Source: Atractiella rhizophila (taxonomy: Eukaryota). Taken from it: a stretch of DNA of 32,349 nucleotides. Below, one piece after another: positions 7,145 to 29,491 of the stretch. The position numbers were made by a program, and so were the translations under genes. The DNA is taken from assembly GCA_021432655.1 (NCBI GenBank), contig MU271303.1, positions 62,001 to 94,349 of the forward strand, in the 5' to 3' direction. Position 1 is the stretch's first letter. Each line of letters opens with the position of its first letter. The notes beneath the pieces were generated by a model. The model was not told the origin of the DNA, searched no databases, and saw only the letters and a program-made list of their open reading frames with translations.

Positions 7145-8400
7145 CTACATAAGAGGTGCGGATAGCTGCAGAAATATGATACTAAGTGGGAGATCTGTGG
7201 TGGGGGGAATTGGGAAGAATAATAAAGGGTCAGAGGATGAGAAATTGCTGCATGACAGCGAGTCAGTAGGATTATTTGCCGAGGCTAGCCAACACGAAGA
7301 GAGTTCGATAGTAAGCTGTTGGCAGCCAGCGTAAATGCGCTTCAGAGATGAATTGGAGTTGATGTTGGAAGTCCAACCTTTGTCAAGGATAAACTGGACA
7401 CCTGTGTTATCAATGTGAATGATGATGGAACGGCAGTGCGGTGAGGGGACGTTGAATTTAGAGGGCAACCTGGAGAATAAGTGATGGAGAAGGTAAGTCC
7501 CCAGCTTGCAAGCCAGCATCTCACCAAAGCCTATCTCCTTGTCCAAGCGCGACAAGTTAGACTTCCACTTCCAGATGGACCAATAACCTTGGATCACTGT
7601 GCTGATTCCCCAGTCTGTGCTTGCATCTCCGTACTACTGGAGGTCGATTGGGTTCTCAGTGTCACACAGCAGGTATGCCAGGGTTTCTATTAGTAGATGG
7701 GATAGCCACTTCTCTAAATCCTTGTGGAGAGGTCCCAGGGAGTGGTGCTGGACTGATGAGGCTACCTTGTGGCCAAGTCTGTGTTTGATCTCATCGAAGC
7801 GAGCGTTCTCCAGGTATAGTGACCGCATGTAAGGACGAAGATAAGGGAAGATAAGGACGAGATGCTCAAGGAACCCCAGGAGGACAAGATTTCGGAGTGA
7901 GGAAAGGAACCAAAGGTGGGGGTGAGCCAGAGTTCTAATGACGGCTTTGAGGAGTTTCAGGCGAGGAAGGGATGTGGAACAGTCGACGAAGCTCCAAATG
8001 AAACCAATGTACTTGAATGTGTGAGCGAAATTGAATGCCTTCTTTCTGTTAATGTGAACGCCTAACTCTTTTAGGATGTCCAGGACATCCTTCAGGTCGT
8101 ACCACTGAGAGGCGGAGCGAGATCTAAAGAACAGTTTGTCATCAACCCAGTGAATGGCAATCCAGAAGAGCGAAGAGACAAAGTCGATCCAGCTGTCATT
8201 CAGGAGCCTGTAATTGCCAGGGCAAGAAGCGCAACCAAAGGAGGCCGCTGTGTCTACCCAGAGGTGACCTTTGAAGTCTTGGAAAACGAAGTAGCGCCCT
8301 GAGTCCGGGCTAGTTGAGAACGTCCTGAAAGCATCTTTGACGTCCAGAGTCATCACTTCGATGTCTTGTGGGAGTGAGAGGAATAAGTGCCACATCATTG
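7145..8400 (-). pseudogene. Reverse transcriptase-RNase H of the YR retrotransposon
   Basis: LDVKDAFR, WVDTAASFGCASCPG, IHWVDD (YxDD equivalent), FKYIGFIW; in-frame TAG at 7634-7636 just before the RNase H motif YGDASTDWGI; EML, HIDNTGV, SANNPTDSLS. Confidence 0.9.
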
Positions 8401-9963
8401 GGAAGCTGACCTTGAGAGGTATGGAAACAATGAAGATGAAATGACCATAGAACACATCACTCAACTCCCTTCGGTAGAGGATATTGCCTGTGAAGAGAGC
8501 AAGGAGACGTGCATGCTGGTAATGCAAATTAACAGCAGCATCTCCAACTGTTGTAAAAAGAAACAGAATCAGCGTCAGAAGAACTGAAGGCGCAATGCCT
8601 CCATCACCTAGTCATTCTTCGATTGACTTAACATTCATATTCAGTTTTTTATCATTTTGTCACACTGGTATTTTTTGTTTCTATCATTCATTGTTCAGCA
8701 TTTCAAAATATTTCAAGTCGTGATTCTTCATTACATCGTTTATAACCTGTCCATTCCAATATATGTCATTCTGTCAAAGTTACAAACCTTTACATCCCTA
8801 TCGACAAGTTCATAACCTATTCAATGATGTCTCTACATTTTCTCATTGTTACACTCATCTATATATCACTTGCATTTGTTTTGTTACTCTTCCAATCGAC
8901 AAGTGAATACTCAACACGATCCTTTACATTCATATATGTCTCTGTTGTATTTTGTTTTGTTACTCTTCTGTCAAATAGCTTCTTGATAAGTAAAAGGTTT
9001 TACATAACCCAAAGGTGAAATCACAATGAAATGATGTAGATTAAGAAGTACTCTCGTACCATATGATGTAGCGTCATCAAACAGGCAAGGTTCATTCAGT
9101 GAGTTGCAGAGATGTGCTTTGGATAGCTTCGTCTAATTGCAACATAGCAGGTATCCGCTGGCAGATATAGGCACTTACAGTCGCTTACGGTCTACTTAAT
9201 GTGTCGCCGTTAGCTTGAGGGTAAGCTGGCAACAGTTGTATGCACACACAGTGGTAGTTGACAGCTTGAGACTTATGGCATAAGCCTGCAACAGCAGTGT
9301 GCATTGCATAGACGGATAGGTTGACAGAAGCCAACTGGCATTGTGAGGAGAGTGGATCCACTGCGACAATGTGTGCAGTCGTCATCAACAGAATGGGGCT
9401 GCCCAGCCGAAATTTTGGTCCGTGTCCAGATTTTCAAAATTTGGATGCTTGCTTCGAGCTTCAGAGGATGCTTCCTGTTCCGAAGCATGTCCCAAACGTC
9501 AGAATCCCCCTCAAATCTCCATTTGACACAGCTAATACGAGGAACGAAGGGGTGCGGCGCGTTTCCAAAACCGTCTACAGTTCTTACAAACCTTCAGGCC
9601 ACTTATGACAAGCATACGAAACTAATCCATGTGGTCACGTGCATGAATGGAGCCCCTCAGTCTGCCTTTCTTTCAAAGTTTGAAGGCACTATGTGGTGAG
9701 AATCACCATGACATTAGCAATCTGGGTATGAGAACCCAAAGTGAATTTGTTAGTGCTACGGTCATGAAACCCACGGTGTTCCTACCCCGTTTGGTACACT
9801 AGGGCCCGAAATGGGCGAAGATATCATGTCCGCCTCACAGGGCCCTCTCATTTCCAATCCGTACCTACCCAAGAGTATGCCGGAGGCTTCCAAAGGGCTG
9901 TGGCGGATGAGATGTATTGAACGCGCCGTACATCACTCCCTTCTGAGGGACACAAGTGTGTCA

Positions 9964-10134: not shown

Positions 10135-13100
10135 TCAGTCTATTTGCATACGTTCTTGTAGATTCAAAACTTCTCTATATACTACATTCTCAGTTTTCTT
10201 ATTATCAGTCCCTTCCACTTGATGTAAATAAACTCTAAGATTCTTCACATTTGAAGCTCTTGACAGTCCGAGATAAAGTTGTCCATGAGCAAACACAGGG
10301 GTGTCCAAGTATAGGCCAACAGTCTCAACTGACTGACCCTGTGACTTGTTGATAGTGAGGCAGAATGCTAACTTGATTGGGAATTGCAACCGGCGTAGGA
10401 CAAAGGGAAATGAATTGGAGACTTTGCTATCCAAAGCGATGCGTGGAATGAGAACTGAGTTGCCTGCGAATGCACCTGTGACAATTGTCGCCTCAATGAC
10501 GCGAGAGAGTAGCTGGGTGACGATCAAACGTGTACCATTACAGAGCCCAGCAGAAGGGTTGAGGTTTCGAATGAGGATGATAGGGGCTCCGACTTTGAGA
10601 TGCAAGCGATAAAGAGGAAGGCCTGTAACATTGAGAGTATTAAGGTACTCGACCATAAAGCCTTGCTGAACATTCTCATTGTCATCCATCAAACGATCAG
10701 CACTGAGATAAATTCGTTCCTGTCGGGAGATAAATCTTCGGATAAGCTGATCGTTTATCAGGTCGACATCAACGTTTCGAGCAGTGAGGACCATGCGCTC
10801 TTGGAAGTATTGCCTCAGTTGATCACGATATTAGTCTTCAGTTATGGTGTTAAGCCCAGGATAGATGTCATTTAAGAGACCTTCCAGGCCACTTGATTGT
10901 GGGATTATTGTTCCATCCTTCATGGTGAATGGACGACAACCACAGTCATCTGGGTCGTCAGTTGCACCATTTCCGACTGACAGCAACAAATTAGCAAAGT
11001 CAGAAGCGATAGCAAAGTCATCAGCTGCCATATCAGCCTGGTGACGGAGAAGACGCATGTTGACGGTGAGAGGAAGGATCGTAACCGCTGGCCAAAACGG
11101 ACTGTTGATGACACATGCATCAACAATCTGTGCACGTGAAGCCTTGGGAATGACAGAGAGGCACTGTCGCATGTCACCTAATCTATTTATCAGAGGTGAA
11201 CTCTTTGAATTATCCCACTTACCACCTAGAACAAAAATTACTCCACCAAAAGGCGCATCTACTTTACGCATATCTCTCAGCATCCGATCGACCGCCTCAA
11301 AGCACCAACGATGGCTCATACCCACTTCATCCCATATTATCAATTCTGCCTCACGGCAAAGTCGTCCATGATCACTCTGAGCCTTAACACCACAGATTGA
11401 ATCTGCTTCAAGGTACAATGGTATTCGAAAGCGTGTGTGGGCAGTTCATCCCCCTTCCAACAGGATAGCAGCAATGCCTGAGGAGGCCACAGCAAGCACA
11501 ATCTTCCCAGTTGAACAAACTTTGGCAAGTAGTAAGTTTTCAACAAAAGTCTTTCCTGTCCCTCCTGGCCCATCAATGAAGAACAGACCTCCACTTCCCT
11601 CTTCCCAAGCTGCTATGATGGTGTCATAAGCATGACGTTGATCCCGATTAAGCAACAGCACCTCCCTGTTGAGACACTCTTGAAGTTGCAGACGATCATA
11701 TGCCAGCTCTTCACCAATTATTCTTGTCTCACCCCCCCACCTTTCTAATCTCTCTGTCTGTTGCGGTAGTCCAAAATCTGACAGAGACTTTGTGTGAGCC
11801 TGTAAGAGATCTTCAATCTCGAGGAGACAGAGACTGATGATTTGTTCTTCATGCGGATTGGCTATACCGTACTTTGTCTGCAGTAAGCGTTTGCAATCAT
11901 CGCTAAGTCGTTGATGATGGTTGTCCCATAACCTTCTTGGTTCACTTGCAACACCAAAAAGAAGGATATAGACAAAAAAGAGACCGCATAGCGTGACCAT
12001 TCTTGACTGAGCTGGCTTCCTCAAGGCAAAAGTCCCATTCTTCATCGCTTTCTAAAAGTCCCAGTGCCACACATGCGGCCTTAAATGTTTCATAAACCCT
12101 TCCCTCCACAGTCCGAACATTCTCAAAGGACTTTGGACTGGCTACCTTGTGTAAGAGAAGTCGGAGGTAGAAAAGCTCTCCTTGTGACCGTGCAACATAA
12201 TAGATCCTTCCAATAGCTTCTCCTCTCTGTCTGATTTTCCATGAGCGTGTGTTTGATTTCCAAGTAAGGTATTGAGGTGCTTTTGGATATGTCAAGTCCT
12301 CAGTAATGTCGGGGTGTTCCATTCAGAAGTCAAAAATTTGGGTTAGTGTGGTCTTGCTAATGTTTGGCCTGGAAAGGATATCATTGAGAGACTCTTCCTC
12401 TGGATTGAACGTGATAGACTGTTGATTGGGGAGGTGGATGGCTAATCGCTTGACTGTTGGAAAATGGTGATGCAATTGAAAGCGGAAGATGCGGGTAACA
12501 GGCTAAGATATATGTCAGACAATCTAAAATATGGTCTCAAAACTGCTTACCTTCAGAAGATCCAATGAATCTAGCATCGAGATACTCTTGGATCTCATCC
12601 ACCTCTTGAGCAGCATTGCCCCTTGTATCACGAATAATAGCTTGAGCTCGATCATGACCTTTATATACGTATTTGAAGAGATATTTCACAGATTTGATAG
12701 AGATGCACAGTTCGACGTTTATATGAGCCATAAAGCGTCGAAGAACGTATGGGTTGAATGGTACAACCCAACGATTATCCATTTGGTGTTTTCTGAAACG
12801 TACGTCCATTGTCACGGCATCGATAAGTTGGATATCCATCGTCATTGATGCCTGTCTCTGCTGCAAACGGTTTGGGGTACCCCTTGCTACAGATCTTTCT
12901 GCCTGGCCTTTTAGGATCCTCTACCATGCAGGGACTATCTGGATTAATGTCTCCACATGGTCCATGAAGCATATGCTGACACACAATATCGAAAAGCTCG
13001 GGGTCAGCATCTTTGTCTGGTAGTTCGGCGGATTCACTGAAGACTCTAGAGACCAAATCTGGTCTGTCTGTAGCAGTTTGTCCAGGCAGTAAAGCTTCAG

Positions 13101-14769
13101 TGATTTCTGGCCAGCGAGGATTGCAGGTAAATGTTGTAAAGATAGTAGGAGAGCCTCGGTTTCCAACAATCGCCATTGCATCCTGAAACTGTTGATTCAT
13201 CTGCCGAGGACTGCCACTGTGCGATGAGGGCAGAATAGTTCTCCTGCCAACATTTACAGGGTCTCGTCCATCCTCCAAGGCATCGCCAAGCCCAGCATAA
13301 GACTCTGTTCGGAGCAATCCTTGATTGAATCGAAGGAAGTTCAATTGTCCACTTTCAATTTGTGCATATGCATCACAAACAAATTCCTGAAAGAGACGGC
13401 CGCCATGATGAATGAGAGTGAAGGTGTCCTTTTTTAGATGGAGAAGGTAAGAGTAGTAGTTCATTTGAGTAACGTGATCCTGTTCTCCCATGTTTCCAAT
13501 GATTTGTCCATCATCGTTTCGATATTCCTCCCGTGGTCCAGGTCGAAGCAAATCTTTGTCCCGTAAGGGAATATAGGCATGCCATCCTTGCTCACCATAA
13601 GGAAACAAAAGTGGAAAACGCAGTGGAAGGTAGTTGGCATTCTGATCACTGACTTTGTCGTAATAGCGCTGACCATCAGGACATCTAAGTTTGACTATAA
13701 TGTCTCTTGTAACCCCTGCTGAGGCTCCTGATTACCCTCCAATGAGTAGAACCGCTATTTCTCCTATCCCATGGCCTGTTGGCTTATTGTATCGCCGAGG
13801 GTCCTTGTCCTTGGGATCAATAGTCCGAAGGTGTAGTTGTAGTGTGGGAGCGTCTTGCATTCACTCCTTCGCAATTTGATAGATATAAGGCCAGGGATTC
13901 TCGCGCCAGATCATCTCTTGAAGACTTCTTAATATATTCTCCTTTAACTTACTCCCCCCAACAACTCCTAACCTCTGCTGGATCTGTTCTGATGGATCGA
14001 GCATGTAGATCTGTACAAATTTCTCCTCACCATCAGAGTCTGGTAGCAGTGCCCCAATTCGATGACAAAGCTCTCCTTGGATCCGGAAAGAATAAACTCC
14101 ATGACCTGGAATAGGAGGTCGCTTGACACCAAGGGAAGTAAAGGAAAGAGCGTTGTTATAGGAACGTATATTCTCGCGGAACTGTTTCGATTCTGGTGCT
14201 TCAGGATTAAGAAGCTGGAGTAGTTCTGGAGGAGGGTCGTCATAAGCTGGCAGGACTACCTTTCCATGGAGACAGCAATAAGAAAACTCTGGTCTTCTTT
14301 TGGAGCTATCTGACGTCCTTTCCTCTAGCCAACGAAATGCACCACAGTGTGAGCAGAAGACAGTGTTCCAGCCGGAGAGTTTCAAGGTTTCAACAGTATG
14401 CGGAGAATAGTTGAATGCAGCAAAAGGATGACGGTCTAGCCTCTCATCCCATGGTGGAACATATCTTGCATTGTGTAGATCATTTTCTTCAAGGTCTTCA
14501 TCAGATGAGTCTGCATTGCTGCCTAATGGTTCTGGGTCTGGTTGGCGACGTTGACGGCGTTGCCTCTGCGGAGCATGTGCTTGCTGCTGCTGCCGAATCT
14601 CACGGGTCAAATGTTGAGGAGGTGTGGGTTGTGTAAGCTGAAAGCGCTGAGGTAACCCTGCAGCACGCCTCTCTGAACGCCGGGGAGGATCAATGGGGCT
14701 ATCTTCTCGCCTCTGCTGCTGGGCACGAATTCGTGTCTCAGCATCTTTTTTTTGCTTGGGACGGGGCAT
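10135..14769 (-). pseudogene. Helitron RepHel (Zn-finger, Rep, PIF1-family helicase) with stops, frameshifts and a HUH-motif deletion
   Basis: CSHCGAFRW..CCLHGKV, IRSYNNALSFTSLG, GSPRQM..QDAMAIV..PTIFTTFTCNPRWPEI, MLHGPCG, KYLFKYVYKG, GPGGTGKT, IIWDE, TINKSQGQS, HGQLYLGLSR; introns near 12500-12550 and 11180-11222. Confidence 0.95.
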
Positions 14770-14881
14770 AATGAAGTCTACTTGGCCATCAGAAGCACGT
14801 AACAGGCTATATTTCACTTACATATCAGTCCTTTCCTTCCCTCATGAAAGGCAAAAGCCAACTTTGGCACACAACCTGAGA

Positions 14882-15006: not shown

Positions 15007-15594
15007 GCGGGGACAGTGGTGGCTATTTCCTTGCTTTCAAGGTTCGAGTCCAGTACAAAACGCATTTTTTCAACCCTTTCAGAATAAAATTTCCTTGCAG
15101 GTTCAGAAAGGGGCAAGCATGTGAGTTATGATGGTATAATTCATTTCATTCTACTGTGCATGGTGTGGGAGGTGTGAGGGCTCAAAAGTGCGTCTTATGA
15201 CTCACGCCACGAAACCCAACGCTCTTAGAAGAATAGATTGGCTCCCGCGTCCCGTCTTCGCGCCTTTTCGTCGCCTTTCCTTGTGTTCACGACCTATTCG
15301 GTTGCAGTGAGTACATTCAGCCTACACGAATGTGACGAGATACCTCTGGAAATGCTTGATCAGCCGTCGTGAGGGGTCCTCATCCGCGGTCGCCTCTCTC
15401 GGTACACACAGTGATCTCCGAAAGATTCACTGGAAGCAAGTGAGTTCTGCCACATTCCTTCAGGCACTTACCAACCAGCAGAGCATCATCCGTGCCCTCC
15501 GCTTTGCTGCCAGATATAAAATGAGGTATGAAGAACCGTTGCTAACTCAGAAGCCAATCAAATCAAAATAACACAAGAGAAATCCCCATATACG

Positions 15595-16521
15595 ATGTCG
15601 ACCAAAATTTTGGTGATCACTGGCACCTCTCGCGGCATTGGGCTCGAGCTCGTCAAACAACTATCCGCCATGTCTTCCAATCTCACCTTTGCACTCGTTC
15701 GCAACCCCTCCAAGGCGGTCGAACTGGCCACCCTGGCGAGCCAGAGGAAGAACCTAGTCATCGTTCAAGCGGACACGAGCGTAACAGCAGAGATTACAAA
15801 AGCCGTTCAGCAAGTCGAAAAGGAACTAGCAGCCAGAGGTTTGAAGGGAGTCGATGTACTCATCAACAAGTAGCCCTCCTCTCACCTAACGACAAGTTCT
15901 CACGTTGGTTTGGTTACAGCGCCGGCATCGGTGGCCCTCGCGACGTCTGGACCAACGTCATAAGCAAAGCGACGTCTTGGGAGCCGGTGGATTTCCTCGA
16001 ACTCTTCCGAGTGAACGTCGTGGGAGTAGTGGAGACGACCAAGGGGTTCCTCTCACTGCTCCACGCTGGAAACGACAAGAAGATCTTGATGGCCTCCAGC
16101 ACAGTTGGATTGATCAGCCCTGTTGGAACTGACAAAGATATCCTTGGGCCTGGGAATCCCGGAGGATCTGCTCCATACGCCATGAGCAAAGCTGGTGCGT
16201 TCGTGCTTCAAGTACCAGTGGCCTATCCCTGATGTGAAGAAGGACTAAACATGGTTTCGAGGAAGCTGGCGACTGAACAACTTAAGCCTGAAGGTTTTAC
16301 AGTTATTCTGGTACACGTGTGTGCCTTCTTTCAGTCTTGTTTCGTCTTTCGCTCATGTAAAGGGATGATAGCCTGGCTGGGTAAAGACGGATATGGGAGG
16401 TGAACAGGCGATGTTGACCACTGAAGAGAGTGTTATCGGGTTGGTGAAAAGGATCGAAGAAATTAAGCCTGAAGAATCAGGCAATTTCTGGGCACCGGGA
16501 GAAAAGTGGGAAGGCTTCTGA
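15595..16521 (+). CDS. Short-chain dehydrogenase/reductase, CsgA/C-factor-like, 4 exons, apparently intact
   Basis: ITGTSRGIG Rossmann motif, INNAG across intron 15870-15919, YAMSK catalytic motif, VHPGWVKTDMGG; further introns at 16195-16242 and about 16317-16371; TGA at 16519-16521. Confidence 0.88.
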
Positions 16522-16789
16522 TGAAGGAGTCGAAATCCTACCTTGCATGATTGTTTCAGGTGTAAGGCAGGATAGACATAAAACAATGATGTTCGTTGTC
16601 TACAAAAAATGAATATATTTTCACGTTTTGAACTTACATGTGATTGAAAGAGAAGTACGAGAACAGGACAGGCTAGGTGTCACTAACTAATGTTTGAGAA
16701 TACGTATGATGGCTGAAGATCTCTTCCCAATGCAATGGTCTTAGAGCCACAATAGCAAGGTCACTTGTACAACACGGTGCGGTCAAGTT

Positions 16790-17911
16790 TCAATTCAAAG
16801 GCAATCCGGGCGACAGTAGTGAGGCAATCTTTCTCGCCTCACTAACATAACTCTCCATATATGCCTTGGCTGCGCCAACGATATCACTCACATTTCTCCA
16901 TTCTTCGACCGACGGGGGTCCTCCATCCTCGTCGAAACGAAAGTACCGATGTTCTTTATTCATGACAGTCAAAGTCCGTTTGACAAAATCTGCAATGCCA
17001 GCATATTGTCTCACGGCTTTCGCAAATGCTTCTACCGCATCGTCTCGTGTCTAGATGTCTAGTCTGACTCGCGGTTCTCTACCAGTACCAATAGACAGTA
17101 AGCATGAAATATCAGCGTGAGGTCCCCAGATGCACTTGAGCTCGTCCAAGGCAATACTAGTAGGATTGACATTGCCGTTGACTCCTGCGATGTACTCGGT
17201 GCGGTCTATCAAGACAGCCTTGAAAATGGCGGTCGTTGTCTGCAAGCGTCGACGAAGCTGCAATTGTGTATACTACTCAGACCTGGTCCATTGTAGGTTC
17301 GGAAAAATGCATCATTCGCAGGGGAAGCATCGTATGCGGGGTCACAAAGACTCGGCAACGGTCCTTAAAGTGATGATCTGAATCTTCAAAGGGAAGGAAC
17401 GAGGGATAAATCGACAAATCGGTAGAATGGGAAGTCAAAATTTCGATTATTGTGCCTGTAATTGCTTTAGAACCTGTAGGGCCTTACAACAGTTGCACGG
17501 AGTGCTTTAAAGCAGGGCCCGTATCGGGAAAATGTCTTTAGCATGGTGCTCAAATATCCTGTAAGCTTCTTGTGCTGTGAGACCTAGCCTCCCAAGCAAA
17601 AGCGCGATCAATCCTCCTGCAGAGCTGCCACAAATCAAGTCAAAAAAGTCGCACGGCCGGCAGGTTCCAACACGACAATATCCGCAGGCACGACACTTCT
17701 CATCAGAACCGAAGGAGCATGATGGAACGCATGATTTGATCCCCCAGTTCAGATGGTGGTCGAGCATGTTTTGAAGCGTTTCCATGATCCTTATGAGAAT
17801 GACAAGCTCAGAGAGACCGCGAATGCCTCCTCCGTCCAAGCACAAGACTCGAAGTGCGTGAGGATTTGGCACTTTCGTCGAACATGGTGGCACATAGACT
17901 TTGTCGGCCAT
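16790..17911 (-). pseudogene. Patatin-like phospholipase pseudogene, copy A
   Basis: LCLDGGGIRGL, FDLICGSSAGG, CRVFVT..FFRTY, NPT..SIGTG, YFRF; frame break near 17507-17520, frameshifts near 17340 and 17240, in-frame TAG at 17051-17053. Confidence 0.88.
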
Positions 17912-18363
17912 TGCAAGTTCAGGGCGCAGTTGCTGTCGCAGGAAACTCAACCCAGTGTCATATTGACTGTAATACATACCAGGAAGAGCGGACCAATAGC
18001 AGTCAAAGAGCATCAGCGGTGGCTTCCTTGTTGGCGTTTCAGATATCTGTGCCGCTTGGTGTCACAATCGTATTATCTCTCTCCTCTCACTTTCAAAGGC
18101 AGCGACTGGAAGAATGGAAGATCGGAGTGGGGATACGAAGACCTGCTAACTGAGCTGAGCGACTAGCTGAGCCGAGCTACGCATTCGTCTGCTCGGTCCT
18201 TTATTCCCCGATGCTAAGCAAGAACTAGGAACTTAACTTAGGAAGGATTGTTTTGGGGAGTGCGCACGGTGACAAGCGTAACGTCTTCGTTACACAGTAA
18301 TGGATTTAGTGGAGCTCTGAAAGTACTCTGAAACACAAAATAGTGAGGATTTCCCATGAAAAA

Positions 18364-18575
18364 TCACCACCTTCGCAGTCTTCGAACAGCAGGTCGCGTT
18401 CGACTCCAGTTGACCGTGGCAGCGGAATTGTATTCTCCCTTCAGAAAGTCTGCATCGTTCTCGAAATCCTTTCGAAATGCGCTAAGTTCTTCGCCTGCGA
18501 TTTTGAGTTCCTCCACATCCTTCTGAAAGATGCTTCTGATGTGTGAGGAACCCGCATCTTCAGCTTTGGCACATA
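18364..18575 (-). pseudogene. Duplicated 3' fragment of the helical-protein gene (copy of 21894-22105)
   Basis: Identical to 21894-22105 and cut at the duplication junction 18575/18576. Confidence 0.9.
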
Positions 18576-19162
18576 CCTTCTCATTTCCAATCCAAGAGTA
18601 CTTATGCTGGAGGCTCCGAAAGAGCTGTGGCGGACGAGTTGTATTGAAGCACCTCTCCCGCCACTCCCCGAAGTGCATGTAGGGGAGGGGTGTGCCCAAC
18701 AGCTCCTCGAAGATACGCCTGAGGTTACGCGCTCATATGCATAATCACTGGACGTTGATATTTTGAGCTCCGCCGAAAGGCGCGTGACATTTCTCCCTTC
18801 CGAGGGACGGTGGTTCCCGCGTAGCGTCTTCGCGTCTTTTCGTCGCCTTTCCTTGTGTTCCCCACCTATTCGGTTCCAATGATTACGTTCAGCTTCCACA
18901 AAGGTTCTGTGATATGTTTCTTTAAAGCGAGAAATGCTGGATCAACGATCAGGAGGGTTTATCGAGACCCGCGGTTGGGTTGCTTCTCCTTCGGCATTCA
19001 CTAGGAAGAGCAAGTGAGTTCTGTCGCCTCACGCGCTTACGAACAAGAAAAGCATAGTTCGTGCCCTCCACTTTGATTCAAGGCATAAAAAAAGGTATGA
19101 AGAACCGCTACTGTCCCAGAACACAATCGAAATAACAGCGCAGCATAGAAAGCTACTCTACC

Positions 19163-20060
19163 ATGTCTACCAAAGGTCTCGTCATCACCGGCACCTCTCG
19201 GCGCATGGGGCTTGAGCTCGTCAAGCAGCCTGCGGTGTCTTCTAATCTAATCTTTGCACTCGCTCGCAATCCCACTGCGGCGAGAAGAAGAACGTAGTTA
19301 TCGTTCAAGCGGACACCAGGGTGACGCTAGAGATCATAAAAGCTGTTGAGCAAGTTGGAAACGAACTGGCCGCCAGAGATCTCAAAGGAGTCTATGTTCT
19401 CATCAACAAGTAGACCTCTCTCGTACCAAGTTCTAAAGTTGATTTGGTTGTTACAGCGCCGGTGTGGGAGGCACTCGCAGTTTCTGGGGCCGCGTTATGA
19501 GCAAAGCGACATCGTGGGAGCCGGAGGGTTTCCTCGAACTCTTCCGAGTGAACGTCGTGGGAGTGGGGGAGACGACCAATGGATTCCTCCCTCTTCTCCG
19601 TGCCCGAAACAACAAGAAGATCCTAATGGTCTCTAGCACAGTTGGATTGATCAGTCCCGTTGGAACTGACAAAGACATCTTTGGTCCAGAAAACCTTGGA
19701 GGATCTGCTCTGTATGCTGTTAGTAAAGCTGGTGTCTTCCTCTTGTAATTATGAGGGGGGTGAGATTCCTGATGTGAAGTCAGGCCAAAATATGGTTTCG
19801 AGGAAGCTGGCGGCTGAGCTTAAGCCTGAAAGTTTTACAGTTCTTCTGGTACACCTGCGTGCCTTCCTTCAGTATTGTTTTCTCTTTTGCTTATGCAGAG
19901 GGATCATATAGCCTGGGTGGGTAAAGACGGATATGGGAGGTGAACAAGCGAAGTTGACCACTGAAGAGAGTGTCAATGGGTTGTGAAACGAATCGAGACG
20001 ATTAAGCCTGAAGAATCAGGCAATTTCTGGGCACCTGGTGAAAAGTGGTCAGGCTTCTGA
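19163..20060 (+). pseudogene. CsgA-like SDR pseudogene, copy B
   Basis: Clear paralogue of 15595-16521 with the same introns; nucleotide-binding motif changed to TGTSRRMG, frameshifting deletion near 19280 giving an early TAG, 1-bp deletion near 19983. Confidence 0.88.
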
Positions 20061-20332
20061 TGAAGGAGTCGAAATGCTACCTTGAATGATGGTTTCAGGT
20101 GTAAGGCATTCGCAGGATAGACGTAAAACAATGATGTGCGTGGTCTACGAAAAATGAATATATTTCAAGTCTTGAACTTACATGTGATTGAAAGAGAAGT
20201 AGGAGAACAGTACGGGCTAGGTGGCACTAATGTTCGAGAATACGGATAATAATATCCGAAGATCTCTTCCCAATACAATGGTCTTAGAGCCACAATAGCA
20301 AGGTCACTTGTACAACACGGTGCGGTCAAGTT

Positions 20333-21454
20333 TCAATTCAAAGGCAATCCGGGCGACAGTAGTGAGGCAATCTTTCTCGCCTCACTAACATAACTCTCCA
20401 TATATGCCTTGGCTGCGCCAACGATATCACTCACATTTCTCCATTCTTCGACCGACGGGGGTCCTCCATCCTCGTCGAAACGAAAGTACCGATGTTCTTT
20501 ATTCATGACAGTCAAAGTCCGTTTGACAAAATCTGCAATGCCAGCATATTGTCTCACGGCTTTCGCAAATGCTTCTACCGCATCGTCTCGTGTCTAGATG
20601 TCTAGTCTGACTCGCGGTTCTCTACCAGTACCAATAGACAGTAAGCATGAAATATCAGCGTGAGGTCCCCAGATGCACTTGAGCTCGTCCAAGGCAATAC
20701 TAGTAGGATTGACATTGCCGTTGACTCCTGCGATGTACTCGGTGCGGTCTATCAAGACAGCCTTGAAAATGGCGGTCGTTGTCTGCAAGCGTCGACGAAG
20801 CTGCAATTGTGTATACTACTCAGACCTGGTCCATTGTAGGTTCGGAAAAATGCATCATTCGCAGGGGAAGCATCGTATGCGGGGTCACAAAGACTCGGCA
20901 ACGGTCCTTAAAGTGATGATCTGAATCTTCAAAGGGAAGGAACGAGGGATAAATCGACAAATCGGTAGAATGGGAAGTCAAAATTTCGATTATTGTGCCT
21001 GTAATTGCTTTAGAACCTGTAGGGCCTTACAACAGTTGCACGGAGTGCTTTAAAGCAGGGCCCGTATCGGGAAAATGTCTTTAGCATGGTGCTCAAATAT
21101 CCTGTAAGCTTCTTGTGCTGTGAGACCTAGCCTCCCAAGCAAAAGCGCGATCAATCCTCCAGCAGAGCTGCCACAAATCAAGTCAAAAAAGTCGCACGGC
21201 CGGCAGGTTCCAACACGACAATATCCGCAGGCACGACACTTCTCATCAGAACCGAAGGAGCATGATGGAACGCATGATTTGATCCCCCAGTTCAGATGAT
21301 GGTCGAGCATGTTTTGAAGCGTTTCCATGATCCTTATGAGAATGACAAGCTCAGAGAGACCGCGAATGCCTCCTCCGTCCAAGCACAAGACTCGAAGTGC
21401 GTGAGGATTTGGCACTTTCGTCGAACATGGTGGCACATAGACTTTGTCGGCCAT
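20333..21454 (-). pseudogene. Patatin-like phospholipase pseudogene, copy B
   Basis: Near-identical to copy A (offset 3543) with the same frameshifts and stop. Confidence 0.88.
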
Positions 21455-21893
21455 TGCAAGTTCAGGGCGCAGTTGCTGTCGCAGGAAACTCAACCCAGTG
21501 TCATATTGACTGTAATACATACCAGGAAGAGCGGACCAATAGCAGTCAAAGAGCATCAGCGGTGGCTTCCTTGTTGGCGTTTCAGATATCTGTGCCGCTT
21601 GGTGTCACAATCGTATTATCTCTCTCCTCTCACTTTCAAAGGCAGCGACTGGAAGAATGGAAGATCGGAGTGGGGATACGAAGACCTGCTAACTGAGCTG
21701 AGCGACTAGCTGAGCCGAGCTACGCATTCGTCTGCTCGGTCCTTTATTCCCCGATGATAAGCAAGAACTCGGAAGGATTGTTTTGGGGAGTGCGCACGGT
21801 GACAAGCGTAACGTCTTCGTTACACAGTAATGGATTTAGTGGAGCTCTGAAAGTACTCTGAAACACAAAATAGTGAGGATTTCCCATGAAAAA

Positions 21894-23771
21894 TCACCAC
21901 CTTCGCAGTCTTCGAACAGCAGGTCGCGTTCGACTCCAGTTGACCGTGGCAGCGGAATTGTATTCTCCCTTCAGAAAGTCTGCATCGTTCTCGAAATCCT
22001 TTCGAAATGCGCTAAGTTCTTCGCCTGCGATTTTGAGTTCCTCCACATCCTTCTGAAAGATGCTTCTGATGTGTGAGGAACCCGCATCTTCAGCTTTGGC
22101 ACATAGTGCCATCTCATAAACCGTCTGGTTGACATACATGTCAAGTGCATAAGTTAATGACCACAATCGATCTTGGTTTTGGCGAAGATCTGTCGACCAT
22201 TTCTCCATCGTTTCCTTCGCTAATTCGTCCTGTGGAAGGCCGGTTGTAGCAAACGAAACGGGCAAGACACGATCATTAAAATAAGCGGAATAACCAGTTG
22301 GTTGGAGTAACCCTATTGGAAATCAGTCAATGTGCTCTTCCATGGCAAGAGCATACATACAAAGCTGATACCATTTCAGTTTGATCCAATCCACGATTGC
22401 AGCCAACCCGACAGCACTGCTTTCGGTGCGTTCTAATTGACAAGTGATAGAATGTGCCAAGAGCCCACTTGCTGCTCGGACAAAGGCTGCAGTGGAGTGT
22501 AACACCGTAGAAGTTCGCGCAAAAGAATAATGTAGCTTGGAAATAGACTCCCTGGCAGGACCTTCCGTCAAATTCTCCCTCAGCAAGAGATTTTCGAACA
22601 CTGTGAGGAAGTTCTGCAAGAAAGCCTCGTAGTCGTAAAGCCTTAGAAGCAAAGCAAATCGCAAGTCTTCTTGTAACAGTCGAACTTCTTGAGGTGAAAC
22701 AATCCATCGAGATTCAATAATAGCGTTGACCCATTTGAAAGAGCGAACAAGGAACTTAAGGTCCTGGTTGCATCGAAATAAAATACTGGAGAGGGTCATG
22801 GCATGAAGAGCGGCGCCTGAAGGTAGCGGTCCAGGTGGTCGCGGCGGATCTTCCACCTAGCGAGGATATCAGATTGCATGCACCATAAATTGAGGAGAAG
22901 ACTTGCTTGCACCTGTCCATCTCTGTTGCGTCCCTCGTGAGACGCCAACAAGGTGTGATGAGATGAGGACTGGTACCGAAACTGTGTCGCAGGTTGAAGG
23001 AAATCAACGGAAAGTTTCATAGCACGCGTGTTCAAAAGGCTATCTGGGACAACCTCAGCGTAGACATCGCTGCAATCCATCCACGACGGAGTTAAAACAA
23101 GAATTAAAGATCGTTGGAGTCGCAATGTTCCAGCTAGGAGATTTTGAAGTTCGGTTTCGACCCCCTTCCAAAAGTCGACGAGACCTTCTGAACACGACTT
23201 GATGACTAGGAAGTGTTGACTAAGATTCTCGCTGAAGGAGTCTAAACTGAGTATCAGTGTTGGGAGAAAGAAAATGAAGATGTCTACACTCACCAAACTC
23301 CCGTCTTTTGCTTAACAGCGCAAGTCGACGCCAGAACCAAAGATATGATGCAACATTTATGGGACGAAGGTGATCATGACAGTTACGGAGCAGCTCAGTC
23401 TGCAAGCTCGACAACTTTCTTGCGAAGCTCAATTGAGAATCGGTCGCATCAATCAATCCGCGAAGTTGAAACAGAACCGATTTCATCCACATACGCTGTG
23501 ATTCACTACCCCAATCACTGTGACCTTCCCAATCAGCGAAACTCGCTGCAAGTCCTTCACCATCGGAGCGTACGTCTCGCCAAGTCTCAAGACACAGGTC
23601 GAAAAGAGTCAGAATCTCGTGTATTTGAACGCAAGTTGAAAATGGAGTGACCAAATAAAATGACTTCCAGGCGTCGTCCCATCCTTTTAAATTTGATTGG
23701 ATGGATGAAAAACTCGTCCCTAAACGCTTGACCAACTCGACGTGATTATGAATGGATTCAAGGTTAGACAT
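21894..23771 (-). CDS. Uncharacterised ~573-aa, predicted all-alpha-helical two-domain protein, 4 exons
   Basis: Four ORF-track pieces join in frame through canonical introns 23242-23293, 22857-22912 and 22313-22360 (exons total 1722 nt); Pro-rich linker EDPPRPPGPLP between two amphipathic helical regions. Confidence 0.75.
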
Positions 23772-24284
23772 CGATGAAAACTGAAAGAAGATGGGAAACA
23801 GATAATGGAACCGCGAATTGTTGGCAGAACGAACAAGCGCTGAGTTGAAATTTACAAATAACTGCAACGCGAGACACTGGCGGGAATGAGTGATACGAAT
23901 TGTCGAGTAGAGAAAGAGCTGAGCGGCCAGAGCGGACTAACTTCTACAACGGGACAAAGGGAAAAAGGGTTAAAGAGATTGGCAGCGTAACCCTAACTCT
24001 ATCTTTGTCTGACAATCAGACTGGCTCCGTTGATTTTTGACCAGAAAATTGATATAGATTATAGTTATTTTCCCAAATCCATGGCACATTGATCGGCTAT
24101 CCATAAAGTTAACCTTAGTTCAGCTGGCAGTCGAAAGCAAGGTGTCAATGGCAAACATGGAAATTAATGAAACTTACCCCATTCCCTTATAGACGGTCGA
24201 GGACATCAGTCTCATTGACCGTAATTTTCAGTAACCCCTTCAGAAGTATCCATTCGGGCTACCTCTTGCCCGCTATTTTCACCA

Positions 24285-25598
24285 ATGGACGTTACTTCAA
24301 GCCAGACAGAAAGTCGCAAGTTCGTCAACATGTTAAAATCGCTCAGAAACCAGGAATCTCTGGATTATGCTCCCTTGTGGCCTGGAATGAGGGCGATATT
24401 ATCATGGGGAGAGCAAAAGTGATGGTCCTCATCAATGTTCATGTCACATTACTGAACTGAGGAACAGCGGCATGATTCCAAAAGCTTCCACAGTTCTTGC
24501 AAGATTACAGGCTACTTTTGACAATATCTGCACCAACTTCTTCTCAATTCTGAAAAATATCTTCTTAGCAGTTGCCGTTTCAATACGGTTGTTCCAACGT
24601 CTACAGGAGGAAATTTCTTCAAATCAAAGCGTTATTTCCGATGCCAAATGTGCTTCCCACTTCGCAGTCCAGCAGAATCAGTTATTTCTAAAAAGTGTTT
24701 CGGCGGATATTCATAGTTTGTGTGACAACCTGGATTCCGTGAGCTCAACATTGTTCTTATTCGGATGATGGCCTAACATGATTGACATCACAGCTGAATC
24801 AAGAATTCAAGTCGCTACATGATCGAAGTGACCGTCACTTTCCTTTCCCTGTGAGTATCAACAATACTTCTCATGAAAGATGATGATGGGTCGGTTTTAG
24901 AACAACTTGCTGAGAAAATTCAATCGTTTATTCTCCGGGTCTGGCGAAGAAGCAGGTAAGAACTTATTGAATATACTCTTCGCGTTTCCTATGAACGTTA
25001 ATGTATGATCACCTAGAGATTGTTGAACTGGACATTGCCACATTTCAGATTCAGTTCAAAGACCTAGGCCAGATGACGTCACAGCTTTCTTCCCCTCTCA
25101 AACAATGGATGGATCAGTTCGCATTCTTAAACTCTATCCTCAGAGCAGTGAGCCAACAAGCCAGCATCTTTCAGGTCGGCGGTGTCACCAAGGAACGGTT
25201 TGATGTTGGATGGTACCGGAATTGCCTGGGCCTGTGGGAACAGGTCTACAGTCGCCTTGACATGGATTTGTTCAAAGTATGTCTGTGATTTTCACATTGC
25301 TGGGAACTGCAACTTTGCCCGAATAGACCTAGGCAATACAATACGAATTATTGCATGACATGTATGGTGACCCAGGATCTTCTTTGTTTAGGGTATTTAG
25401 GCAACGTACGTAAAGAACTTCGTTGAGAATAGGTCGTTCATATTGTTCATATTTCCCACAGTCCGTGAAGACTCCGACCGACAGGGTGACCCACGGACTG
25501 TTGAATTCTTACACCTCCTGTGGGAAAAAGGTGCCAAGGAATGTGATGAGAAGATCAAGGAGCAAGGAGCGTTTTCACCAAGAAAAAATGGAGCTTGA
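24285..25598 (+). CDS. Uncharacterised helical protein, 7 exons; possibly the frameshifted N-terminal half of a fusion with the downstream patatin
   Basis: In-frame splicing through introns 24419-24467, 24739-24793, 24851-24900, 24956-25016, 25277-25332 (or 25326, which gives a TAG) and 25406-25461; LWEQVYSRLDM resembles LWSLTYALDM of the minus-strand helical protein. Confidence 0.6.
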
Positions 25599-26880
25599 GG
25601 CCGAATTTCGTAACTCGTACCGAAGCTATCGACAGATCAAGAAATGGGATGTGAATGAGCGAAGAGTCGATCTGCCTATCCCAAAGAAACAATTGGGTGA
25701 CTTCAGTTTCAAGACGTTTATGACCTCTTATCTTGCCGCAAATTCACAGTTTTTGTTCCACATCGACTTACCTTTGATAACGCCACAAAATACCCCAATC
25801 AAGGATTCCTTCGAGACTGAAGCAGTGCTCACTGCGGCCCAGCTAAGTTCGCTAAAGCTTGTAACCTCAGATTCATCTTCGACTCTTTCGCGGATACGCA
25901 TTTTGTCACTAGACGGGGGTGGAACCTGGGCCTTCGCGGAATTATTCTTTTTGCGAAAAATTCTGCAGGAACTCTGGTACGGGCTTTCGACGGACGAGCG
26001 AGCAAAATACGGGTCTCCTGAAAATATTCAACCATACAAATTCTTTGATCTGATTGTCGGTTCCTCGACTGGCGGCCTCCTAGCGTTGATGCTGGGTTCA
26101 CTCAAGATGTCCTTGAAAGAGACAATGGACGCTTTCGAGGACCTTTGCAAGAAGCTTTTCAATGCAGAGAAAGAGGGGGTTGTCACGGTTTCTTCCTCCA
26201 GCTCTGCCTTCGAAGATGCGTTCAAGAAGCTGATTCGCGACAGTGGTGCCGACGAGGAGGAACTTTTTTCTCCTGTCAGGGCCGAGTGCAGAGTAGTCGT
26301 CACCGCAGCTTATACCGCTTCCATAAACAAGTTAAAGCTGTTTCGCTCTTATGCACAGTTTGACTCGGACAAAGTAAAACTTTGGGAAGCTGCTCGTGCC
26401 ACAACTGCTCACCCAAACCTCTTCCTCCCAATCAAGATTGACGGTGCCAACTTTGTGGATGTCAGCGGTTCCGGAGACCTAAATCCTACCATGGCCGCAG
26501 TTTCTGAAGCGCATTCGATTTGGGGTCAGGACGTTCAATTTGGATGTGTTATTTCTCTGGGGACAGGTGAAAGACCTCCGATGGAGCAAAAGCAAAATAT
26601 GTCCCCGCACGATCTTTTTGCAGTCATAGGCGACACAGGCCAGCATGGATCTCGAGAAGTGGAAAGGGCGCACATCCGCTTCTGCGATAAAGATGTCTAC
26701 TTTCGCTTTGAGGCCAAGCGTCCAACCTACACTCATGTTTCTCAAGACTTTCATTTCAAGCATTTAACCGCCGCCGCCGGTTTAGCGCAAGCCGAATTGG
26801 GCAGATATCAGCGCAACAAGGAACTCGTACGAGCAGCTCAATGTTTATGCACTCCCACTCAGTCTGGCGTAGAATTGTGA
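25588..26880 (+). CDS. Patatin-like phospholipase domain protein (open frame; start uncertain)
   Basis: ILSLDGGG, FDLIVGSSTGGLLALMLG (GxSxG), CRVVVTA, LFRSY, LWEAARATTAHP, NPT, ISLGTG, YFRF. Confidence 0.9.
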   Translation: MELEAEFRNSYRSYRQIKKWDVNERRVDLPIPKKQLGDFSFKTFMTSYLAANSQFLFHIDLPLITPQNTPIKDSFETEAVLTAAQLSSLKLVTSDSSSTLSRIRILSLDGGGTWAFAELFFLRKILQELWYGLSTDERAKYGSPENIQPYKFFDLIVGSSTGGLLALMLGSLKMSLKETMDAFEDLCKKLFNAEKEGVVTVSSSSSAFEDAFKKLIRDSGADEEELFSPVRAECRVVVTAAYTASINKLKLFRSYAQFDSDKVKLWEAARATTAHPNLFLPIKIDGANFVDVSGSGDLNPTMAAVSEAHSIWGQDVQFGCVISLGTGERPPMEQKQNMSPHDLFAVIGDTGQHGSREVERAHIRFCDKDVYFRFEAKRPTYTHVSQDFHFKHLTAAAGLAQAELGRYQRNKELVRAAQCLCTPTQSGVEL

Positions 26881-27212
26881 TTCAATTCCTGACCATCGTA
26901 CCAAGTATGTGTCGTCTCCAGAAGTTCTTACTGTAGTTCCTGTTCGAAGTGTTCAGATTTTGTTGCAATGCATTTCCGCTTTGTACAACAATTCCGAAGA
27001 TCCTCACTTCTGATGAGTACAACGGGTTACATATGTATGTGTCCATCACCGTTGCAACAGTGACTACCAGCTCTGACAGAAAGAAATTCAATATTACAAC
27101 AGAACTTTTGGGTAGATTCCCGTCCAATGCACCCCTTACCCAGAAGCAGAACCATACAATACCCCTTTCTATTTCAAGGGTGATCCAAAAAATCGAAAGC
27201 TTGAAGGATGTC

Positions 27213-29068
27213 TCACGTGAATCCAATGTTAATCATATCCTTCGAAAATAGAGGTCGGGACCATGACAACCCAGCGATAGTCTCAACGTCGGTCCTCCAT
27301 CTCTTCCAGACTGCCTGTTCCATGCTGAATCCGAAAGAGGATTCATGGTCCTGCTTGGACAAGAGCTCACCGTACTTCGAGGCAACATGAACGTACGCAA
27401 GGTTTGGCAAACGTGCTCTATTACCTTCCAGCACTGAAAGAAATCTTTCGAGAACGTTAAGGTCTAACTCGCGAACGAATAGGTATCGAATGGTCGATGC
27501 GAGGCGCTTTAACTCGTTCTCCGGGAAAGCCTTCTCGATCGTAAGAGAGACAAGACCGGTGCAGTGAGAAATGGCTTCTCGAACTTGAGCTGCGCCGGTA
27601 AGGGTTCGAATGGAAAGGTTCCTCAGGCTCGATTTGGCGCGGAGAATCAGGTTGTACCCCTCGTTGAGACTGTAGAATTGCCGTTCGCGCCAGGTTGGTT
27701 CAGTTGCGTGGATTTCCAGACTGCGTAAGCAATTTTCTTCGATAGAGTTGCTGAAGGCAGTCGTGATCACTCCACAGTCCGTTAGTGATAAGTGCTGTAG
27801 TCGAAGCTTCCACGGCACCTCTTGAAAGTCTTCAAGGGAAATGAGAGATAGGTCTAGAACAACTAGATGGAGTGAAGCGCCGACGTTGGGTATCAACGGA
27901 GCGAAACCGACTGCATGAGAACTGAAATTCGAAACGGATAAGTGTACAAGCTTCGGTAAAGGAGGCAAATGGCCCATGGAAATGTGCTCGAATCTAAGAA
28001 ATTCCAATTGCTTCGAGCAGGCGGCAATAAACTCGTATGCCTGCGCATTAGGCTGCAGCAGTATTGCAGGGAGGGAGAGATGTCGAGTAAGCAATTTTCT
28101 TCGATAGAGTTGCTGAAGGCAGTCGTGATCACTCCACAGTCCGTGAGTGATAAGTGCTGAAGTCGAAGCTTCCATGGCACCTCTTGAAAGTCTTCAAGGG
28201 AAATGAGAGATAAGTCTAGAACGACTAGATCGACGGAAGCGCCGACGTTGGGTATCAATGGAGCGAAACCGACTGCATGGGAACTGAAATTCGAAACGGA
28301 TAAGTGTACAAGTTTCGGTAAAGGAGGTAAATGGCCCATGGAAATGTGCTCAAATCTAAGAAATTCCAATTGCTTCGAGCAGGCGGCAATAAACTCGTAT
28401 GCCTGCGCATTAGGCTGCAGCAGTATTGCAGGGAGGGAGAGATGTCGAAGGCTACTGATACTCCGCTCAAAAAAATAACTGAGGTGCTGAGGGATTTCGC
28501 CGCCTGTGTCGCCATAAATGCCTATTTCGCATGTGATGTCGAGACTGATAAGGCTTGATGATAGCTGGTGCGAGTTGGGAATCCAGACGGACTCGAAGTT
28601 CAGGGACAGATGTCGCAGGCCAACCAGGGTTGACAGCACGCCGATGGCGTAATTCGTTCCATCGGTTTGGAGGATATTGAGCGTTAGAGCGACAAGGCCA
28701 TTAGCAAGAGGCTGAGGGAAAGAAAACGTGCTCCAGAACTGCCGGTCGTCTTCGTTTTCGGTATCGCAGTCAATATCTAACGCCTTGAGGTTCGGTGACA
28801 TTCTGAGTACTTCGGAGGAATGCTCGATTTTGCATCTCCAATCCACGAGCAAATTTCGAAGTTGAAGACATATTCTTGGGCGCTGTTTGAAGAACGAAGC
28901 TGATTTCGACGTCAACGCGATGCGTCGTCGGAAGAGGACGTCGGACAATGCTTCATGGAAAATGCGAGAAACAGTTCGAAGGGAAGCAAGGTACGAATTT
29001 GAGATGTCTTGATCAAGGCAGAGCTGTGTTAGAATGTCGATGAGGAGCTCCGGAGGAAGATAGTTCAT
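27213..29068 (-). pseudogene. F-box/leucine-rich-repeat protein gene frameshifted by an internal 362-bp duplication (497 aa if one unit is removed)
   Basis: N-terminal F-box MNYLPPELLIDIL..LRTVSRIF; repeated LxxLxL motifs (NLKALDI, GLRHLSL, SLRHLSL, KLVHLSV, SLRNLSI, NLAYVHV); 1856-362=1494 nt, in frame. Confidence 0.8.
27725..28448. repeat. Tandem duplication, 2 x 362 bp (27725-28086, 28087-28448)
   Basis: Direct alignment gives 13 substitutions and no indels. Confidence 0.95.
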
Positions 29069-29491
29069 AGTCACCTGGAAGGAAACAGCAGATCTATCAG
29101 TTCGACGTTCAACGATGGGATCGGCAGTCTTTGAAGGTTCCACACAATGAATTGTAATTTTCGCACTGTTATATTTATGACAGACCCATTCGCCAGCTGC
29201 ATGTGTCGCTCATATTGCCGCTTTGTTGTGCAGGCTATGTCTAATCTTCGTGAAGAACTTGATTGATGCGCCTGAACACTGCGAACTCACGTTGTTTCCC
29301 ATCTCTAACAATAACTTTCATGCATCTCCAATGCTGTCGTGGAAAGATCAAAGGGGCAGGCCTCCTGGTCGTACATGTCATCGGAGAGCAGACGCCGACC
29401 TATTAGCGATCCTCCTTGTTTTTACGCAGCACAAGCTTAGTTCCAATTGCAACGCCAGTGTAACGGCTACAAAGCACAATCTCACAACAGG

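Follow-up and report, generated by a model that had tools for sequence, protein, structure and literature searches.

Genes and transcripts at the divergent locus

Atractiella rhizophila is a root-associated member of the Pucciniomycotina, an early-branching basidiomycete lineage. We analyzed a window of 32,349 nucleotides from its genome (positions 62,001 to 94,349 of contig MU271303.1, which is 100,820 bp long), and in particular a block at 20333-26880 in which two sets of genes are read away from a common spacer. The minus strand carries a gene for an all-helical protein, which we call HelA, followed by a stand-alone patatin. The plus strand encodes a second helical protein, HelB, together with another patatin domain. 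In the databases, proteins identical or nearly identical to those of the window carry the name Atractiella rhizophila.

The window was compared with assembled contigs from four public runs, X1, X3, X4 and X8. Three of them (X3, X4 and X8) hold RNA, since HelA intron joints appear in their contigs, and X1 behaves like DNA because none of the 11 joints occurs in it and the spacer is covered. Parts of the plus gene that X4 and X8 leave without RNA were not taken to be silent. The spacer (23772..24284) lies between the two start codons, that of HelA at 23771 on the minus strand and that of the plus gene at 24285, confirming the divergence of two gene sets described in the initial annotation of this stretch. 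Minus-gene RNA contigs extend to 23907 and a plus-gene contig begins at about 24191, 228 letters ahead of the joint at 24418, so that the untranscribed core of the spacer measures about 280 bp or less. We infer that the spacer is probably a shared bidirectional promoter.

HelA (21894..23771, minus strand) is an intact, spliced and expressed gene for an all-helical protein without a known domain. Its four exons (23771-23294, 23241-22907, 22856-22361 and 22312-21894) are separated by introns with the ends GTGAGT..TAG, GCAAGT..TAG and GTATGT..TAG, and all three joints are present in RNA contigs of X3, X4 and X8. The exon translation is exactly that of the database protein P0128 (KAH8924137), 575 aa long, which corrects an earlier count of 573 aa; the discrepancy arose because intron 2 has a GC donor. 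An AlphaFold2 (AF2) model of HelA, built with five paralogues, is helical throughout in its secondary structure, with a predicted local distance difference test score (pLDDT) of 36 and a predicted template modeling score (pTM) of 0.25. The three-dimensional model is unusable at this pLDDT and too poor for comparing folds. An internal repeat was considered for HelA and rejected, since shuffled sequences matched the candidate scores 200, 376 and 204 times in 500.

The best-kept part of the HelA family is the C-terminus (21894-22000), which reads F..DADFL.GEY......NWS...P...R.R.W with Trp as the last residue; nearly all of the family's 31 invariant columns fall within the last 150 residues. This tail may be a binding motif. 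At the start of exon 4 (22308-22311), RNA contigs of three runs carry four different letters, giving Ser for the window's Leu (WLLQ in the window, WSLQ in these contigs and in the paralogues). This difference is allelic and sits right at the splice site.

On the plus strand, a single 2398-nt contig of X3 bears six GT..AG joints (24419-24467, 24739-24793, 24851-24900, 24956-25016, 25277-25332 and 25406-25461, the first of them also seen in X8) and continues unbroken to 26900, which places the helical exons and the patatin on one assembled transcript. HelB (24285..25598) is encoded by exons 24285-24418, 24468-24738, 24794-24850, 24901-24955, 25017-25276, 25333-25405 and 25462 onward. As assembled it is 328 aa long, the spliced frame entering exon 7 in the frame of a small open reading frame (ORF) at 25401-25598 and ending at the stop 25596-25598. 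It contains one hydrophobic helix at residues 69-87 (Kyte-Doolittle mean of 1.82 over 19 residues). The patatin domain and its linker (25571..26880) lie out of the HelB frame, with a first in-frame ATG at 25546. Between the two parts, a perfect 7-bp tandem duplication of AAGGAGC (25557..25570) shifts the frame; when one copy is dropped, the frame is open downstream to 26880. The 535-aa paralogue P0199 holds the HelB tail and the patatin in one ORF and is uninterrupted at the place matching 25557-25570. Over 25462-26900, the X3 contig falls short of the window by exactly 7 letters, all of them omissions whose exact place is not listed. We conclude that the plus strand carries one seven-exon HelB-patatin fusion gene rather than two genes, that a 7-bp slip has disrupted it in this assembly, and that an intact allele is likely to be expressed elsewhere.

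The minus-strand patatin (copy B, 20333..21454) lies downstream of HelA and is a pseudogene in this assembly. Its 5' leader (21476..21797) contains two introns, 21797-21742 and 21522-21476, upstream of the ATG at 21454 (MADKV), with the ends GTGCGC..AAAG and GTATGT..ACAG; the joint 21475/21523 is found in X3 and X4, and 21740/21797 in X3. Read from the sequence, the upstream frame meets a stop after splicing and the ORF starts from MADKV. Splicing of HelA onto the downstream patatin was considered and rejected, since the RNA-supported introns there all lie past the HelA stop and the frame closes. A contig of X3 does bridge the last HelA exon and the 3' end of the patatin, but a contig over two genes is no proof of a single transcript.

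In the window, the reading frame of this patatin switches four times and contains an in-frame TAG at 20594-20596. The runs differ from the window by +C after 20781, +C after 20882, -1 at 21029, +T after 21048, +A after 21071 and A>G at 20596, and these six differences are common to all four runs, although the two +C sites lie outside the cover of X8. They match the ORF pieces exactly (frames 1, 2, 0, 2, 0, 1), with Gln in place of the stop. Because they restore the frame, the window's copy is the pseudogene form of a gene that X4 and X8 show intact wherever they cover it. An additional 13-bp deletion at 21234 breaks the frame in X1 and X3.

Two further features of this gene are worth recording. 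Between the GGG and GxSxG motifs (21150-21290) it has a Cys-rich insert with about eight Cys in 35 residues (...CVPSCSFGSDEKCRACGYCRVGTCRPC...), which occurs in no other patatin of an 11-row alignment; it is also the site of the 13-bp deletion found in X1 and X3. At 20529-21071, the window and all four runs differ by 14 substitutions and five one-base indels in about 540 bp, and the next 1.1 kb is almost identical. This crowding of differences looks like a gene-conversion patch from or to another paralogue.

Patatin domains and their helical neighbors

Against a Pfam cut-off of 27.7 bits for PF01734, the plus ORF 25414-26880 scores 60.8 bits (2.6e-16), the minus piece 21050-21604 scores 33.5 bits and P0199 scores 47.9 bits. 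The layout described by the initial annotation, a helical reading frame followed by a patatin on the same strand in both directions, is upheld by these matches, but its division of the plus strand into two separate genes is not. No NB-ARC, NACHT or TPR domain was matched by Pfam in any ORF of 19-28.5 kb (11 ORFs scanned) or in the 18 other long ORFs of the window, again as first described, and the same scan found no NOD-like receptor (NLR) gene within the window.

The nucleophile elbow GxSxG is present as GSSTG in the plus gene and in the paralogues P0199 and P0130, and as GSSAG in the minus gene. The catalytic Asp, a column at least 90% conserved in a 51-row alignment, is kept in the plus gene and its paralogues, with V/A-S in place of G as the next residues. 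The minus patatin has Ala at this position, even in its intact form. Conversely, the oxyanion loop GGGx[RK]G is fitted by the minus gene (DGGGIRG) but not by the plus gene (DGGGTWA) or by P0199 and P0130 (DGSGTWA). The patatin alpha/beta fold was tested on P0199, whose AF2 model has a mean pLDDT of 73.7 and about 90 in the patatin part. In Foldseek this model matched CapV, CapE, Pat17 and iPLA2-beta at E values of 4e-13 to 7e-11 (matches including 9jek, 9kh6, 9ioq, 4pkb and 1oxw), with a sequence identity of 14-20%.

Among long proteins, the best matches of the locus patatins are fungal patatin-NB-ARC/TPR proteins, at 30-35% identity over residues 1-340 of the latter; both patatin ORFs finish about 340-360 aa past the GGG motif. 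The plus patatin is 57% identical to P0199 and P0130 and about 30% identical to the minus patatin, which itself scores 116 bits against a Mycena NLR patatin and 103 bits against the plus patatin. A quick maximum-likelihood tree of 73 rows unites the four Atractiella patatins with a Shimodaira-Hasegawa-like approximate likelihood ratio test (SH-aLRT) value of 97, a grouping flagged as a meeting of long branches. When either partner is removed, both are nearest to P0131 by path and the plus clade joins another long-branched group. The two patatins may have a common origin inside the lineage.

The initial annotation had read the locus as an old inverted duplication of a two-gene module of helical protein and patatin, in which HelA and HelB, like the two patatins, would be distant homologs. 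The mirror-like layout and the grouping of the four patatins (SH-aLRT 97) agree with this reading, as does a Smith-Waterman score of 39 for hand-picked C-terminal motif regions of HelA and HelB, against a shuffle mean of 28.2 (s.d. 4.5; matched by 16 of 500 shuffles). In the paralogue pairs, P0122, P0128 and P0127 each against P0199, these regions carry no such signal and are matched by 180, 357 and 475 of 500 shuffles, and the "IQYEL" stretch, one of the motifs, falls in a 20-aa segment without a counterpart in the annotated P0199 model. Full-length HelA against the window's HelB scores 39, the shuffle mean being 38.1, and is matched by 203 of 500 shuffles; a positive control, the window's HelB against P0199, scores 221 and is matched by 0 of 500. 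The colinear motifs noticed earlier are therefore there as letters but do not rise above chance. Nor did profile comparison yield significant similarity: an hhalign alignment of the HelA profile with P0199 has a probability of 0.4% (E 0.14), BLASTP gives E values no better than 0.5, and the HelA hidden Markov model (HMM) has no match in HelB-bearing proteins. With tblastn, HelA finds nothing better than E 2.5 in the plus region, in keeping with the remark that the two helical genes lack obvious DNA similarity. HelA and HelB have no detectable similarity, and we see no evidence of kinship between them in their sequences. Together with the single fused gene on the plus side, facing two ORFs set apart by a stop and about 440 nt on the minus side, the patatins at about 30% identity and the instability of their tree grouping, this makes an inverted duplication with homologous helical partners very unlikely.

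Relatives of HelA are found only in A. rhizophila, as far as sequence searches reach. An exhaustive HMMER search with HelA exon 4 against 1.84 billion representative proteins returned six matches at E <= 0.001, of which three are real (P0121, P0122 and P0123) and three are multi-stretch, low-complexity matches. Both of the real matches with a named source come from A. rhizophila, and P0123 is the window's own protein. All four matches of a word-indexed search with P0122 (P0122, P0127, P0128 and P0129) also belong to this species. Pairwise identity among the HelA paralogues is 57-74%, and P0123 and P0121 are partial copies. None of five members tested has a Pfam match at E <= 1, including to the HeLo, HeLo-like, Goodbye and SNARE families, and no PDB sequence matches HelA at E <= 10. 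Atlas feature scores, for which the tool's bar is 0.9, reach at best 0.89 (unnamed Basidiomycota clusters), followed below the bar by 0.82 for a cluster in which 19% of members carry Bacillus_HBL and 0.81 for HlyE. A pore-like, HeLo-like or SNARE-like character, raised in the initial annotation for the helical proteins, did not emerge from these Pfam, PDB-sequence and atlas checks or from the AF2 model; the likeness to ClyA/HBL put forward there is kept as a lead.

HelB likewise has no Pfam match in the scan of the region's ORFs, and for its tail and linker a near-length search turned up no relatives beyond Atractiella. Residues 1-200 of P0199 give a best atlas feature match of 0.77 (GBP_C), and the structure rows of the atlas have TM values of 0.38 or less by query, all short of the bar. 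For the first 190 aa of HelB, the comparison covered a set of 199 proteins, in which phmmer matched the region upstream of the patatin in ascomycete proteins of 1300 aa at E 0.05-0.09. We rejected this kinship as noise, since a profile of that region from 66 sequences gave negative scores and an hhalign probability of 0.3%.

Recurrence of the gene pair and turnover of the region

HelA-type genes and patatins also lie together elsewhere in the genome. P0122 (KAH8915643, HelA-type) and P0199 (KAH8915644, a fused-type patatin) have consecutive accessions on a 28,919-bp contig. The window's own contig carries three further HelA-type models, KAH8924112, 113 and 119, and a further patatin, 116 (P0130), in a run of eight consecutive accessions. 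Because P0122 and P0199 adjoin, the recurring unit is HelA with HelB-patatin, which in the window is the head-to-head pair, and not a helical gene with a patatin behind it. The two loci have diverged to 63% identity for HelA and 57% for the patatin, and both partners are intact at the P0122/P0199 locus. The proposed linkage of helical and patatin genes in a fast-changing region is thus retained as a co-occurrence within A. rhizophila, stripped of the idea that the helical partners are homologous.

Recent and older duplications mark the surroundings. Copy A (16790..18575, minus strand) is a recent duplicate of the patatin pseudogene and of the last 70 HelA codons, its HelA fragment being P0123 (18367-18678). 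In a self-comparison of the window, 16804-18575 and 20347-22105 differ by four substitutions and one 13-bp indel (99.8% identity over 1.8 kb); the listed translated ORF pieces of copies A and B are identical, and tblastn of HelA against copy A gives 98.6% identity over 70 aa. Adjoining copy A is an older duplicate, about 80% identical, of the short-chain dehydrogenase stretch 18996-20335 (15425..16789, plus strand; weak adh_short match). Among the substitutions, the C>T and G>A changes typical of repeat-induced point mutation do not predominate (67 of 229). Directly upstream of the duplicated block lie a Helitron (10135-14817, minus strand), split over several frames and recognized by matches to Helitron_like_N, PIF1 helicase and Pif1_2B, and, adjoining it, a reverse-transcriptase fragment (7634-8611, minus strand). 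The picture of duplication and pseudogenization beside a nest of transposable elements, drawn when the stretch was first annotated, is borne out by copy A, the frame lesions and these two elements.

Turnover is also seen between runs. The plus patatin exists in at least three haplotypes in the four runs, with an 8-bp deletion at 26015 in X1, and the minus patatin in three states. HelA shows only substitutions, the one exception being a 1-base deletion at 22196 in a minor contig of X1.

Downstream of the HelA/patatin block, an F-box-like gene (27213-29209, minus strand) contains an exact head-to-tail 362-bp tandem duplication with 96.4% identity (27725-28448). As 362 is not a multiple of three, the gene is split into two overlapping ORFs, and it is the second gene of the window to have been broken by a tandem duplication.

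With a Helitron next to the block, HelA and the patatin genes could be cargo or parts of a mobile element, captured for instance by that Helitron, and owe their copy number to transposition. Several HelA-family copies in one genome and none elsewhere, some of them truncated, would fit such an origin. Young transposon copies, however, would not look like these paralogues, which are 57-74% identical and have open frames and conserved gene models with introns; no repeat pair brackets the block in the self-comparison of the window, and HelA has no transposase-like domain. We consider this origin highly improbable.

A possible receptor-free patatin module

The gene structures described above are well supported. 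On function, the reading we favor, at a probability of about 0.4, makes HelA and HelB-patatin a patatin module that is specific to this lineage, lacks an NLR and possibly acts in cell death or conflict. The working unit would be the divergent pair. The patatin would act as a membrane-damaging lipase, and the HelB N-terminus would either restrain it or carry it to the membrane. HelA, expressed from the shared promoter region, would serve as the partner of HelB-patatin, as its trigger, its inhibitor or a guarded target. In conflict, whether with conspecific non-self or under microbial attack, the module would kill cells. The different frame-breaking lesions in different isolates would fit a gene set that is costly and often lost. 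This functional reading draws on reports of patatin domains in fungal NLRs (PMC12881547, PMC4986451) and of effector domains apart from NLRs (PMC9815663). A more specific version, in which a two-gene, NLR-free cell-death or allorecognition system is confined to Atractiellomycetes, the helical proteins sense, the lipase kills and null alleles are kept because the active pair is costly, appears unlikely.

Several points weigh against a joint module. The tie of HelA to the lipase is a proposal from adjacency. The activity of the plus patatin is uncertain because its oxyanion loop is without the usual Arg/Lys-Gly. No segment of HelA is hydrophobic enough for a membrane span (best Kyte-Doolittle mean over 19 residues of 1.1-1.5). 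An intact fused allele is inferred rather than read, as the place of the 7 letters missing from X3 is not listed. The consecutive accessions of P0122 and P0199 give their order and not their orientation, and since all copies are in one genome and stem from duplication, the repeated adjacency amounts to one history and not to independent replication. At 93% identity, P0130 and P0199 are closer to each other than the members of any HelA pair (74% at most), so that the partners have not always been duplicated together. Finally, all three patatin copies are broken in this assembly while HelA is intact, and HelA could therefore be a gene that does not need the patatins.

The last two points also speak for the main rival, that the genes are neighbors by accident: HelA would be an unrelated lineage-specific gene and the patatins decaying members of a large repertoire, copied piecemeal and without a joint function. 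Duplications abound here (the 1.8-kb pair at 99.8%, the older 1.4-kb pair at about 80% and the 362-bp tandem repeat of the F-box gene), the Helitron and the reverse-transcriptase fragment adjoin, and partial HelA copies exist in P0123 and P0121. Yet two loci that have diverged to about 60% protein identity retain a HelA-type gene beside a HelB-patatin-type gene, with the second locus intact, and in the window the pair has a common spacer of about 510 bp or less with both genes transcribed. Accidental neighborhood is a serious possibility, if short of probable. If the HelA/HelB-patatin pair does act jointly, it would offer a simple and testable means of controlling a death lipase, and two families of genes without relatives would gain their first function; if not, the locus is a clear case of a conflict-type gene cluster being taken apart by duplication, by a 7-bp slip and by indels of single bases.

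Patatin lipases are executioners in fungal NLRs, in the bacterial cyclic-oligonucleotide-based anti-phage signaling system (CBASS) and in plants, and, to our knowledge, fungal patatins of this type have been studied as NLR receptor heads. A narrow check of the literature (patatin with fungal NLRs; the species) found no title or abstract on a locus such as this one. The closest comparison is with fungal NLRs of the PLP-1, HET-Z1 and VIC2 type, described in PMC12881547, which cites Heller et al. 2018, as patatin-NB-ARC-TPR proteins that cause cell death with the SNARE SEC-9 as partner. Among long proteins, the locus patatins are closest to the N-terminal patatin domains of these receptors. They differ in that NB-ARC, NACHT and TPR are absent here, that the plus patatin is C-terminal behind about 330 aa of HelB, and that the minus patatin is N-terminal but has nothing after it. 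The sec-9 gene adjoins plp-1, much as a helical gene stands beside a lipase gene at this locus, but HelA has no SNARE Pfam match.

A second comparison is with the amyloid-controlled effector clusters of ascomycetes (HeLo-like protein, SesB-like lipase and NLR) and the stand-alone pore-forming domains of Basidiomycota, as covered in PMC9815663. There, too, a helical protein and a lipase are encoded adjacently as death effectors, and effector domains occur apart from an NLR. HelA, however, matches none of HeLo, HeLo-like and Goodbye, the lipase here is a patatin and not a SesB-type alpha/beta hydrolase, no amyloid-type motif is obvious at the termini by eye, and the window holds no NLR. With CapV and CapE of CBASS and with Pat17, the P0199 patatin shares its fold (Foldseek E values of 4e-13 to 1e-11) and the Ser-Asp pair, differing from them by a sequence identity of 14-20%, an additional helical stretch of about 200-330 aa at the N-terminus and an oxyanion loop without the usual basic residue. 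Set beside these systems, the locus presents an expressed patatin of NLR kinship without the receptor part, fused to the orphan HelB and paired with the orphan HelA.

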